The notes under the pieces are model-generated. The model saw only the letters and a list, made by a program, of their open reading frames with translations, was not told where the DNA came from and ran no database searches. A stretch of DNA of 19,312 bases, taken from the NCBI GenBank assembly GCA_963666315.2, contig CAXXHG010000002.1, forward strand, positions 1-19,312, read 5' to 3'. The number at the start of each line of letters is the position of its first letter. Position 1 is the first letter of the stretch. The translations under genes were made by a program, and so were the position numbers. This stretch comes from Candidatus Binatia bacterium (lineage in GTDB: Bacteria > Desulfobacterota > Binatia > Bin18). Positions 15,096 to 17,415 of the stretch are shown here, in pieces.

Positions 15096-15136
15096 AATCC
15101 CCCTGCGCTGCCGCGCTTCCCCCTTTGCAAAGGGAG
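15096..15136 (+). repeat. Palindromic intergenic repeat, left copy (AATCCCC...CCCCCTTTG/CAAAGGG)
   Basis: aatccccctgcgctgccgcgcttccccctttgcaaagggag; related inverted copy at 17329-17360. Confidence 0.65.
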
Positions 15137-15198
15137 CACTCTTCCTTCCTGACACAAAAGAAAACTAGTAGTCAAATTTGCATGCGCGAGGAGAAGAA

Positions 15199-16104
15199 AT
15201 GATGGCTGACTCCGATCATCGCACTTTTTCCCAGCGCTACGGGTACGAGCCTTTACCGGAACCTATGCGGCTTGAAGAACTATCAGATGATCTGAGACGA
15301 GAAGTTTGGAACACCACCCGGCAGTTCCTTAAAGCAATAAAGGGTGGGGGGTATTATTTCTCGTATGAAGTGAAACAGTTTATGGAGCACGTTTTGGGTA
15401 GAGTCTTGAAAAAACCAGAAGACGACATCAACACTGATTATGACCCAGTACATGACCTTTTCAAGCAAATACTCCTTGCCCATGATTTTAACGTAGTGCT
15501 TGACCTTATTGAAACCGTAGTAAACGAAGGCAAACAAAGAGAAATAGCCCCCCATTATAGTATCCTAGCAAATCGTATCAAGGCTGTATTTGAAAGCCAT
15601 GCTGCGGCATATCGGCTCTTTTTGGTAGGTATAGACGCGGCGCATTCCCTATTTCAATTTTTTCCACAGAGCAGCGAGGAGCAAGGAAAGGCAACGCAGC
15701 AGGCGATTAAGATAATCCATGATGGTGGCATGACAGGCGCGGCAACACATCTGCATGACGCGACGAAAAAAATCAGGGATGGAGATTTTGCGGGTTCAGT
15801 TGCGGACAGCATTCATGCCGTTGAATCTGTGGCTCGTATGATTGATCCGAAAGCAAGCAAAGAACTCGGTCCAGCGCTTACCTCCCTGACCAACGCCGGT
15901 GTCATCAGGCACGCCGCCCTCAAGAAGGCGTTTGCTAAGCTCTACGGCTATACCAGTGATGAACAGGGGATTCGTCATGCGCTTCTTGAGAAAGATTCGC
16001 CCGATGTCGATATCGACGAGGCGGTGTTCATGTTCGGGGCATGCGCGTCCTTTGCTGCCTACCTCGTGAATAAATACCAGAAAATAAACCGCAGCAGAGG
16101 GTAG
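15199..16104 (+). CDS. AbiJ-like protein (AbiJ_NTD4-type N-terminus plus HEPN-like C-terminus); candidate anti-phage defence
   Basis: FSQRYGY...ELSDDLRREVWN N-terminus; C-terminal SIHAVESV...LYGYTSDEQGIRHA; RBS GAGGAG; lower-GC 5' half. Confidence 0.75.
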   Translation: MMADSDHRTFSQRYGYEPLPEPMRLEELSDDLRREVWNTTRQFLKAIKGGGYYFSYEVKQFMEHVLGRVLKKPEDDINTDYDPVHDLFKQILLAHDFNVVLDLIETVVNEGKQREIAPHYSILANRIKAVFESHAAAYRLFLVGIDAAHSLFQFFPQSSEEQGKATQQAIKIIHDGGMTGAATHLHDATKKIRDGDFAGSVADSIHAVESVARMIDPKASKELGPALTSLTNAGVIRHAALKKAFAKLYGYTSDEQGIRHALLEKDSPDVDIDEAVFMFGACASFAAYLVNKYQKINRSRG

Positions 16105-16224
16105 GGGCAGGCCGATTTTGTTACTATTGACAGTCTATGGATATCGCCCAAAATAGACGCAGCCCCGAGAATGTTCCCGAGGCCGCGTTAAAAACAGACG
16201 GTGTGATAATCTTGAGAGGCAGTT

Positions 16225-16854
16225 ATGGCTGAACAAAAGGTAAAAAAGTGGTTCGGAACGACTGATATTAAACTCAATCTGAATCTGACAGCTGTTTGGG
16301 TTTGTGTGGCAGCCCTTATCGTTGGGATACTTATCTATCTGTTCGCAAAAGCCTCGCCTGAAAATCGTTCAGTCTATGTATTCATGGCTAGTGCTCTTGG
16401 CTTCCTTACTGGTATTATCACGTTACTCGCAAGACTGTCTCAAGGCGAACTGCATTTGGAACAGGCTAGACGCACCGCCGCGTTGGACTTTATCATTCGT
16501 TGGACGGACCCAAAGTTCGATGATACCCGTCGAAAAGGACGAGATATCTATGAGGAGCTAAAAAAGGCGCGAGAAGATAGGCCAATCAAGTCAGAAGAGG
16601 AGCTATTTGCCGAATTGCGGCGAGATAAGGAAAAATGGGCCAATTTTGTCGATGTGGCTAACTTTTTTGAAACATTAGGAATTGCATTCCACCATAAACA
16701 GGTGGATGAAAGAATAGTCAAAGATTTCTTTCGGGGAATTATTGCTGGGTACTGGAATGCGTTTAGACCTGTAATAGATAAGAGAAGAGCCGAGCAAGAA
16801 AATCCTCGGCTCCTTCAATGGTTTCAGGCCTTACACGACGAAAGCGGGAATTAG
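16225..16854 (+). CDS. Membrane-anchored DUF4760-like protein
   Basis: Two N-terminal hydrophobic helices; VANFFETLGIAFHHKQVDERIVKDFFRGII..YW...I..RR motif; RBS GAGG; low GC. Confidence 0.75.
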   Translation: MAEQKVKKWFGTTDIKLNLNLTAVWVCVAALIVGILIYLFAKASPENRSVYVFMASALGFLTGIITLLARLSQGELHLEQARRTAALDFIIRWTDPKFDDTRRKGRDIYEELKKAREDRPIKSEEELFAELRRDKEKWANFVDVANFFETLGIAFHHKQVDERIVKDFFRGIIAGYWNAFRPVIDKRRAEQENPRLLQWFQALHDESGN

Positions 16855-16886
16855 AACGCGGCGTCATCTCCTTCGTAGTAGCACAT
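16851..16886 (-). CDS. Putative 11-aa micropeptide MCYYEGDDAAF
   Basis: ATG TGC TAC TAC GAA GGA GAT GAC GCC GCG TTC TAA on the minus strand; RBS CAGGAGGGAG at 16891-16900; TTGACA at 16942-16947; stop overlaps the DUF4760-like stop (TTAG). Confidence 0.5.
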   Translation of the reverse strand: MCYYEGDDAAF

Positions 16887-16977
16887 ACGACTCCCTCCTG
16901 ATGGATTAGTATACTTTTCTTGTATAGCGGAATGCGCCAATTGTCAAATGAAAAATCTCTGTAGTGAGGAGAACGCA

Positions 16978-17208
16978 ATGAATGATGAACACGTAATAAG
17001 AGTACTCGATCTGCTGAAAGTCTGGTTTCCTAGCACTAGAAACATATCGGACAATGATAGGAAGAAAGCAGCGATTCTCACAGGAACGCTTGAGGAAACC
17101 GCTTTTAGGAAGATAATCGAACGTGCTTGGGAGGGAGACGTTGGGGCTATCCGCTACCTAGAAGAGAAAGGCTTTATTCACTTACCAGACGCGACGGTGA
17201 CACAGTAG
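16978..17208 (+). CDS. Small hypothetical protein (76 aa)
   Basis: ATG 16978 preceded by GAGGAG; no recognised motif. Confidence 0.55.
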   Translation: MNDEHVIRVLDLLKVWFPSTRNISDNDRKKAAILTGTLEETAFRKIIERAWEGDVGAIRYLEEKGFIHLPDATVTQ

Positions 17209-17328
17209 CGTGGTGCTATTGGTTGGATTAAGTATATTATTTCCGATAAAAACCTTCAATCCTCGCCTTTTTATATCCACTAAAAGCAAATCTGGCACTT
17301 TGTCGTTGTGTCAAACAAGGTGAGTAGG

Positions 17329-17360
17329 TCCCTTTGTAAAGGGGGGACTGAAGGGGATTT
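17329..17360 (-). repeat. Palindromic intergenic repeat, right copy (inverted relative to 15096-15136)
   Basis: Reverse complement reads aaatccccttcagtcccccctttacaaaggga. Confidence 0.65.
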
Positions 17361-17415
17361 CCCAAGCGGCGTGTTGCACGGTGTGGGATTATGCGTCCGG
17401 CGGAGCGTAAGCCGA

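Follow-up and report, generated by a model that had tools for sequence, protein, structure and literature searches.

Does an open reading frame (ORF) of eleven codons, lying against the end of a far longer gene, encode a product of its own, and, if so, what would that product act on? The question is raised by a 19,312-nt stretch of DNA from a Candidatus Binatia bacterium (contig CAXXHG010000002.1), the whole of which is referred to here as the window, and to which all window coordinates refer. Within it, a gene for a DUF4760 protein is met, 3' end to 3' end, by a minus-strand micro-ORF encoding MCYYEGDDAAF. Based on the comparison of related loci described below, the 11-codon gene probably functions together with the DUF4760 gene, the former appearing to represent a previously undescribed family of genes for acidic peptides, 7-26 codons in length, that is inherited with one DUF4760 subfamily and is always located at the 3' end of its gene. 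The leading reading, with a probability of about 0.5, is that translation of the micro-ORF yields a peptide acting in trans on the DUF4760 protein, at its cytoplasmic domain.

The micro-ORF and its translation signals

The micro-ORF and the DUF4760 gene (Table 1) converge so closely that a single TTAG (16851-16854) is common to both stops, providing the TAA of the former and the TAG (16852-16854) of the latter. From stop to stop, the frame of the micro-ORF spans only 30 codons and offers no other plausible start. The arrangement of its Shine–Dalgarno (SD) sequence and start codon, expressed as AGGAGG-N5-9-ATG, occurs at eight sites in the window, against 0.72 expected from shuffled sequences, and none of 200 shuffles reaches eight; the other seven sites all coincide with, or share the frame of, start codons of long ORFs listed for the window, which makes the signal a specific indicator of where translation begins in this genome. 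Moreover, the minus-strand RNA around the initiation region is less structured than all 200 of its shuffles (z-score +2.68; +1.32 for the equivalent region of the related genome G012), and an open region of this kind suits translation initiation. The micro-ORF lies far beyond chance, and pure chance is a negligible explanation for it. The encoded peptide has a net charge of -3 and is devoid of any hydrophobic stretch.

Direct reading of the sequence bears out what the earlier note, made from the letters of the window, had said of the position of the micro-ORF, the SD spacing, the upstream boxes and the shared TTAG. Its proposed promoter fared less evenly: the TTGACA, TATACA and TATACT boxes and the 15-nt spacer are present, but their status as a promoter was not confirmed by a sigma-70 consensus scan, which covered spacers of 16-18 nt and does not list the site. 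The large partner, described in the note as a DUF4760-like membrane protein, is a clear member of that Pfam family, the match scoring 84.1 bits against a gathering cut-off of 25 and covering profile positions 13-139 of 141.

Table 1. Features of the locus, in window coordinates
Feature	Position	Strand	Basis or remark
Micro-ORF, 11 sense codons and TAA, MCYYEGDDAAF	16851..16886	minus	Direct sequence reading
Start codon ATG of the micro-ORF	16886-16884	minus	Direct sequence reading
Stop codon TAA of the micro-ORF	16853-16851	minus	Direct sequence reading
SD sequence AGGAGG	16899-16894	minus	7 nt separate it from the ATG
Candidate micro-ORF promoter, TTGACA and TATACA	16947-16942 and 16926-16921	minus	Boxes read in the sequence; spacer 15 nt
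Second candidate box, TATACT	16913-16908	minus	Sequence reading
DUF4760 gene, 209 amino acids	16225..16854	plus	Pfam PF15956, E 1.3e-23
Promoter-like site, TTGACA, 16 nt, CAAAAT	16127..16154	plus	Upstream of the DUF4760 gene; consensus match only, 10/12
PDC-S32/AbiJ-like gene	15178-16104	plus	AbiJ_NTD4 (Pfam); PADLOC PDC-S32, E 1.6e-56, nearly full length
76-amino-acid ORF, SD GAGGAG	16978-17208	plus	Diverges from the putative promoter region of the micro-ORF

Of 41 related genomes searched at the DNA level, two from the same genus, G014 and G012, have the DUF4760 gene, with 76 and 68% DNA identity over the gene, respectively, and the similarity continues past the stop codon. In both, the ATG of the micro-ORF, the SD sequence (6-7 nt upstream), the length and the stop overlap are all kept. 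Within the seven-codon core YEGDDAA, the three genomes differ at five sites, all of them third positions, and there are no amino acid changes. A copy in run X2 is near-identical to the window: over 16056-17400 it departs at three positions, and the list of these includes none within the micro-ORF or the stops. Run X5 contains a relative that is ~81% alike over 16623-16887. A stricter core pattern applied to 28 genomes of the genus found only G014 and G012; back-translated and run against genome contigs (596 Gb), the core pattern gave at least 111 stretches, and those listed all lie inside long unrelated ORFs, as chance predicts.

The third-position pattern must be read with care. After the DUF4760 stop, the plus frame in the three genomes reads NAASSPS, KAASSPS and MAASSPS, each followed by a second stop, and its wobble positions coincide with those of the micro-ORF; thus, in these close relatives (cluster A), the synonymous changes show coding constraint but cannot tell the strands apart. 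The minus strand is singled out because conservation of the ATG (CAT on the plus strand) and of the SD sequence extends beyond the second stop of the plus frame, and by the more distant relatives. Both genus genomes carry a disrupted DUF4760 gene: G012 (L127, 1501-2130) has an in-frame TAG at the position of a tyrosine in the homologue P0003, and G014 (L128, 1489-2103) has a -1/+1 indel pair that truncates the last ~30 residues. The micro-ORF is intact in both.

Micro-ORFs across one DUF4760 subfamily

In protein databases, the close subfamily comprises four clusters at 90% identity, and the wider family 312 representative clusters at E 0.001 or better. Loci were drawn from the class (10 of 401 genomes), from the phylum by PF15956 (21 of 401), from the family of G283 (7 of 165) and from Joint Genome Institute (JGI) metagenomes (11 loci), the last of these scans yielding only distant relatives with 21-34% identity. 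The locus scan used a 5-row alignment, a 43-row alignment being too diverse. A hidden Markov model (HMM) built from representatives defined the subfamily, E < 1e-45 separating it from other DUF4760 proteins, and 15 loci remained after removal of duplicates. The clusters within it share only 17-32% pairwise protein identity, and the DNA outside the micro-ORF cannot be aligned between them.

Table 2. Micro-ORFs at the 3' ends of subfamily DUF4760 genes
Cluster and locus	Orientation to the DUF4760 gene	Peptide	Codons
A, window	convergent	MCYYEGDDAAF	
A, G014	convergent	MRCYEGDDAAF	ATG CGC TGC TAC GAA GGA GAT GAC GCC GCC TTC TAA
A, G012	convergent	MICYEGDDAAI	ATG ATC TGC TAT GAG GGG GAT GAC GCA GCC ATC TAA
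B, L136/L137	convergent	26 amino acids ending VYFDGDDAAL	
B, L139	convergent	MRYTYRDADDPLI	
C, L138	convergent	MYCFDISDP	
C, L142	convergent	MICNDISDP	
C, L143/L144	convergent	MMKDTADPPRTNLTSTGF	
D, L130	co-directional	MCKELDL	
D, L135	co-directional	MMVKELDY	
D, L132	co-directional	MAFGLDF	
None, L140	co-directional; weak SD, found by eye	MKLTIFDGDPGF	

Despite this divergence, short SD-led ORFs recur at the same place (Table 2). The convergent ones overlap or abut the DUF4760 stop, the co-directional ones (cluster D and L140) lie between that stop and a terminator-like hairpin, and the SD sequence is kept in all relatives. In the soil-metagenome loci L136/L137, where the DUF4760 protein is 32% identical to that of the window by tblastn and 27% in the multiple alignment, the convergent ORF is SD-led and has the same stop overlap. 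The peptides usually carry a hydrophobic or aromatic residue before an acidic core and often a hydrophobic C-terminus. Loci L138 and L142, whose proteins are 55% identical, have C-x-D-I-S-D-P in common through codons that differ as GAT/GAC, as CCC/CCG and by a switch between the two serine families, TCC/AGC; K-E-L-D recurs in L130 and L135 (proteins 52% identical), its four codons having undergone three synonymous changes. Selection at the level of the peptide is seen in three clusters. Additionally, the micro-ORF of L142 overlaps the last four codons of the DUF4760 gene, and its register relative to the stop differs from that of L138.

The association was counted under fixed criteria: an ATG, an SD core from a set within 18 nt upstream, and 5-30 codons, with the stop of a convergent ORF at -20 to 0 of the gene stop or the start of a co-directional ORF within 60 nt. 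Dropped before counting were duplicates (L137, L144, L146, L147, L148 and L170-172), fragments with no HMM match (L153, L166 and L173) and L145, which has too little downstream DNA. Eleven of the 15 subfamily loci carry such an ORF, eight of them convergent and three co-directional. The corresponding counts are 1 (a hydrophobic peptide) and 2 of 26 for other DUF4760 subfamilies, 62 and 111 of 2950 for ORFs of ≥250 amino acids in the own genome, and 16 and 17 of 943 for ORFs of the same minimum length at 111 unrelated loci, so that control genes have SD-led micro-ORFs at a rate of about 2-4%. A binomial estimate by hand, with p ~0.02, puts 8 of 15 near 1e-10, a locus-based figure that kinship makes too optimistic; by lineage, 4 of ~9 gives ~2e-5. 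By hand count, 10 of the 11 micro-ORFs encode net-negative peptides, compared with 14 of 81 control micro-ORF peptides. Against the window core YEGDDAAF, the L136 peptide scores 31, and the six-frame control reaches a maximum of 28, in one of 2950 3' regions; the other distant peptides are tied to cluster A by position, SD sequence, size and acidity rather than by sequence score.

Outside these cases the signal fades. Nothing convincing was found at the DUF4760 3' end of L141, L169 or L129, L169 being the one locus added by the search of the family of G283. At L129 (genome G023), the gene for a 262-residue DUF4760 protein is faced by a convergent, SD-led ORF of 45 codons with a signal-peptide-like N-terminus, an 18-nt overlap and EGADY within its C-terminal part, which was considered as a homologue but left uncounted. 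Three weak matches in 351 Acidobacteriota genomes and one in 301 Bacteroidota genomes all belong to other subfamilies, and none has an acidic micro-ORF; searches of plasmids, phages and viral contigs with the DUF4760 protein yielded no relative.

Overall, a two-part module of DUF4760 gene and micro-gene is well supported. The earlier note had anticipated short ORFs with ribosome-binding sites opposite DUF4760 homologues, and these are present at 8 of the 15 subfamily loci, with three more on the same strand; as for the module it proposed, its existence and the linkage of its parts (11 of 15 loci) are supported, whereas its mechanism is not.

The DUF4760 protein and the action of the peptide

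The AlphaFold2 model of the DUF4760 protein, based on 43 sequences, has a mean predicted local distance difference test (pLDDT) score of 89.8. Hydrophobic helices span residues 19-42 and 45-~70, the second extending as a long helix to residue 93, after which a five-helix domain follows. The N-terminal lysines and the arginines after helix 2 suggest that both ends of the modelled protein are cytoplasmic, and the five-helix domain is probably cytoplasmic too; as the peptide has no signal sequence, it would share this compartment with the helical domain. Across the 43 sequences, Asn146 and Glu149 are invariant. Compared with other DUF4760 proteins, those linked to micro-ORFs conserve Trp93 and Pro96; position 102 is lysine or arginine in 13 of 13 of them (20% of the others), and position 106 is arginine or lysine in 77% (15% of the others).

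A further difference concerns the C-terminus. Beyond the last conserved leucine, proteins of the micro-ORF-linked subfamily have tails of 5-11 residues, with the exception of P0002 (14 residues, through stop-loss read-through), and those of other subfamilies have tails of 13 to ~130 residues. In L134, L145, L154 and L157-L164, whose proteins have one transmembrane helix each, the tail ends in a conserved acidic amphipathic stretch, EE-x-x-x-F-[IL]-[DEN]-[DE]-E, that is absent from the micro-ORF-linked subfamily (for example, EEFLDEEITL, EEIKEFLNDELKLKV and EEEELNRFIEEEKTALSD). This suggests that the micropeptide may be a trans substitute for the acidic tail encoded in cis in other subfamilies. 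When L157 was cut into its domain (38-144) and tail (145-182) and submitted to complex prediction with a custom 9-row alignment, the pair scored 0.45 and the best of three controls 0.00, with agreement between runs of at least 73% of contacts and a partner pLDDT of at least 60; 58 of 80 solved complexes attain the mark applied, as do 2 of 110 mismatches, and at a score of ≤0.60 it is attained by only 7 of those 80 complexes and by both of the mismatches that pass. The prediction lends weak support to a docking of the tail on its own domain. It serves as an analogy only and may be given little weight, since the partners are halves of one protein, from another subfamily, and such halves tend to pass.

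Searches for the fold itself gave one lead. Against the PDB, Foldseek returned no match to the DUF4760 protein at E 0.001 or better (E-values for EP domains being 1.9 or more), a sequence-profile search of the PDB found nothing, the ESM Atlas held DUF4760 clusters only, and longer DUF4760 homologues contained no informative extra domain. An exhaustive structure aligner, applied to residues ~77-209, placed at the top the EP domains of PAD4, of another EDS1-family chain and of EDS1, with Z 9.9, 9.3 and 7.6, root mean square deviations of 3.3-4.1 over 122-127 residues and identities of 7-12%, the next unrelated match having Z 6.1; for helical bundles, Z below ~13 may mean only a common arrangement. 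The profile search of the PDB gave no sequence-level signal linking DUF4760 to EP domains. In plants, the EP domain of the EDS1 family binds nucleotide signals made by TIR proteins. It is possible that the modelled DUF4760 helical domain is a bacterial look-alike of this domain, which we regard as a lead; unlike EDS1, PAD4 and SAG101, the DUF4760 protein has no lipase-like domain, and no TIR gene lies nearby.

These features lend themselves to the following picture. The peptide would be made in the cytoplasm and act on the helical domain of the membrane-anchored DUF4760 protein, its acidic residues pairing with the subfamily-specific basic residues of the DUF4760 helix. Three features fit a trans-acting peptide: the orientation of the micro-ORF flips, in cluster D it would be co-transcribed with the DUF4760 gene, and an acidic peptide could pair with a basic helix. 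In particular, the type of peptide is kept when the orientation changes, which argues for a trans-acting peptide product rather than antisense RNA.

What the peptide would do to its partner is a more tentative matter. The variant that we favour, possible but rather less than probable, is that a short-lived peptide keeps the membrane protein inactive, as a labile neutralizer with the logic of toxin-antitoxin or abortive-infection systems; were the peptide to run out, as might happen when gene expression in the host is stopped by a phage, an effector that damages membranes would be set free. Neutralization is favoured by the sporadic distribution of the pair, by the low-GC island beside the PDC-S32-like gene, by a transposase next to one copy and, weakly, given targets of 36 and 630 nt, by the decay of the large gene and survival of the small one in two of three genus genomes. 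A close precedent is SpoIISA-SpoIISB of Bacillus subtilis, in which a membrane toxin with a cytoplasmic domain is paired with a small protein antitoxin of 56 residues. Both would be self-contained two-gene modules in which a membrane-anchored protein is held in check by a small, separately encoded polypeptide; the present peptides, however, have 7-26 residues, the gene order and convergent overlap differ, the toxicity of DUF4760 is putative, and no relation of sequence or fold turned up in the Foldseek, structural-aligner and PDB profile searches. MgrB, AcrZ and MgtS likewise modulate membrane proteins, as proposed here, but they are transmembrane regulators of 30-50 residues that are not tightly linked to their targets, whereas the micropeptides are shorter, soluble and always encoded next door. 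Doubtful, although worth stating, is a still more specific conflict module, in which the micropeptide would be a detachable trans version of the acidic tail and its rapid turnover would let an EP-like membrane effector sense a stop in expression and kill or arrest the infected cell.

Several observations weigh against a translated, trans-acting peptide, in addition to the shared wobble positions of cluster A. The sample is small, 15 loci in ~8-9 lineages, and four of these (L129, L140, L141 and L169) fail the fixed criteria. The motif common to the clusters is loose and was defined after seeing the data: distant peptides other than that of L136 score between -2 and 14, the upper value being attained by 468 of 2950 control regions. 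From target size alone, a 36-nt ORF would be expected to stay intact next to a broken gene of 630 nt. The candidate promoter, unlisted by the sigma-70 scan, can be aligned only in its TTGACA box and in only one of two relatives (G012). The sole contig from an RNA run lies over the next gene (17025-17181) and has no strand information, its failure to cover the micro-ORF being uninformative, and PADLOC has no model for DUF4760, so that the case for a defence role comes from the neighbourhood alone.

Four other explanations were weighed against the trans-acting peptide. The first, which we hold to be unlikely, is a translational sensor in cis, in which stalling or destabilization of the ribosome on the micro-ORF would control the fate of the 3' end of the DUF4760 mRNA or of an antisense RNA, in response to Mg2+, translation inhibitors or infection. 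Asp-Pro before a stop codon slows termination, and the leader peptides of cat-86 (MVKTD...) and cmlA (MSTSKNAD) act on the peptidyl-transferase centre; like these and MgtL, the micro-ORFs are tiny, with conserved amino acid sequences that are acidic or proline-rich near the N-terminus. The present peptides are very short, acidic and often endowed with proline (DISDP-stop, KDTADPP, DADDP and FDGDPGF), and the micro-ORF is always at the 3' end of the DUF4760 cistron. A cis sensor is favoured by published accounts, according to which negatively charged sequences with intermittent prolines destabilize translating ribosomes (10.1101/2021.02.02.429294, PMC9718836); EGDD, DADDP, DISDP-stop and DPP fit such destabilizing or termination-stalling sequences in composition. 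Yet known leader and arrest ORFs lie upstream and act as switches through alternative RNA structures, whereas the micro-ORFs are downstream or convergent, in either orientation, and show no structure signal (z -0.14 for the plus-strand fold, and the minus-strand value given above) and no match to any Rfam family. Moreover, one cis mechanism could hardly serve both sense and antisense arrangements, and the cluster A and L136 peptides have no proline. The same folding and Rfam results led us to reject an RNA element, and, together with the downstream or convergent position of the ORF in all 11-12 cases, a leader-peptide attenuator.

It is improbable that the peptide is a substrate or precursor, which the DUF4760 protein would modify, export or sense in a microcin-C-like, RiPP-like (ribosomally synthesized and post-translationally modified peptide) or signalling system. 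In its favour are the close association of so small an SD-led ORF with a single protein family and the invariant Asn146 and Glu149, which could be catalytic or ligand-binding. There is also the precedent of mccA, the seven-codon microcin C gene at the head of an operon with an adenylating enzyme and an exporter, which proves that SD-led genes of so few codons can be real and yield a functional peptide; however, no gene for such an enzyme or exporter, or for any other modifying enzyme, transporter or peptidase, is among the conserved neighbours of the DUF4760 loci. Pfam scans of the neighbours in the window and at six other subfamily loci contained no enzymes of a RiPP or microcin C-like cluster, and that candidate was rejected. 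The peptides are without a leader or signal sequence, their C-termini and the positions of cysteine and aromatic residues vary between clusters, and Foldseek, the structural aligner and the PDB profile search detected no similarity of DUF4760 to enzymes.

More remote still is a function residing only in the minus-strand transcript, with the ORF incidental. The genes converge with overlapping stops at 8 of 15 loci, a TTGACA box lies upstream in the window and in G012, and type I toxin-antitoxin pairs such as txpA/ratA and bsrG/SR4 provide a precedent for convergent genes that overlap at their 3' ends, one of them very small. In those pairs, however, the toxin is a small hydrophobic membrane protein and the antitoxin an RNA, whereas the micropeptide is hydrophilic and acidic, and it is its large partner that belongs to the membrane; a type I system was rejected on the peptide's hydrophilicity and charge and on the co-directional relatives, which have no antisense overlap. 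An antisense transcript, the alternative offered by the earlier note, is disfavoured as the conserved function, for in three to four lineages, including cluster D and L140, the micro-ORF is on the DUF4760 strand, before the terminator. Furthermore, conservation tracks codons, as in the third-position changes and the serine switch, the ATG and SD sequence are kept everywhere, and DNA beyond the micro-ORF cannot be aligned between clusters. Finally, there is hardly any likelihood that the conserved sequence is a remnant or read-through extension of the DUF4760 C-terminus, xAASSPS: the metagenomic homologue P0002 (71% identical) has indeed lost its stop and reads ...NQKAASSPS, and the plus-strand tails and wobble positions noted above are compatible with it, but the stop is kept in six of seven cluster A sequences (window, G012, G014, P0003, P0004 and the X2 copy), conservation runs past the second stop of the plus frame, the different register of DISDP in L142 excludes such a tail there, and the co-directional loci would go unexplained.

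Genomic setting and significance

The pair sits within a low-GC island (~15150-17400) of three small genes, with a GC content of ~45% against 60% (~41-54% within it against ~55-65% on the flanks). On one side it is bounded by a GFA-family gene, on the other by a gene for a luciferase-like monooxygenase, and a search of its edges turned up neither direct nor inverted repeats. The AbiJ-like neighbour pointed out in the earlier note matches AbiJ_NTD4 and PDC-S32, a candidate single-gene system in PADLOC, and a defence-island setting for the micro-ORF/DUF4760 pair is supported. In PADLOC-DB 2.0, this upstream gene is the only one with a model, neither DUF4760 nor the 76-residue neighbour being matched. 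In relatives G021 and G005, the PDC-S32-like gene occurs apart from DUF4760, and it is, therefore, an independent neighbour. Indeed, the neighbours of the pair differ at every relative examined (an IS1595 transposase in G012, DUF1329 genes in G014, valyl-tRNA synthetase at L140 and otherwise unknowns), which makes the DUF4760 gene and the micro-ORF a self-contained pair. The IS1595-family transposase of G012 lies directly downstream of the broken DUF4760 gene.

On the other side, the 76-residue ORF has no match in Pfam, PHROG, NCBIfam or PADLOC. That it is transcribed is hinted at by a single metatranscriptome contig, from run X20, which covers exactly 17025-17181, inside this ORF. Between the PDC-S32-like and DUF4760 genes, a 14-bp GC-rich hairpin with a T-rich tail (16157-16188) resembles a minus-strand terminator. 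Before the island, a C-rich segment of ~35 nt (15100-15135) has 89-100% matches at many scattered places in the genomes of the genus and resembles a dispersed short repeat.

A full-text literature search for DUF4760 brought up no functional study, the sole mention being a table entry for a genomic island of a Serratia strain, and nothing relevant was retrieved on micropeptides in phage defence or on EP domains in bacteria. Within the literature searched, the micro-ORF family and its linkage to a DUF4760 subfamily are regarded as not in print. A small partner of a membrane protein, possibly toxin-antitoxin-like, is already known in kind; new are the size class of 7-26 codons, the conserved convergent layout with overlapping stops, and the protein family.

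With 7-11 codons, a gene escapes every annotation cut-off, and few genes of this size have a known function. Regulation or neutralization of the membrane protein by the peptide, if it occurs, would provide the first functional handle on DUF4760 and would bring a class of very small partners into the biology of toxin-antitoxin systems and defence; it would also make a case for screening the 3' ends of genes systematically for micro-ORFs. Should the conflict-module reading hold, the small partner, with its 7-26 codons, would rank with the shortest conserved genes known to encode protein. Being small and self-contained, the pair lends itself to direct testing in a laboratory strain.

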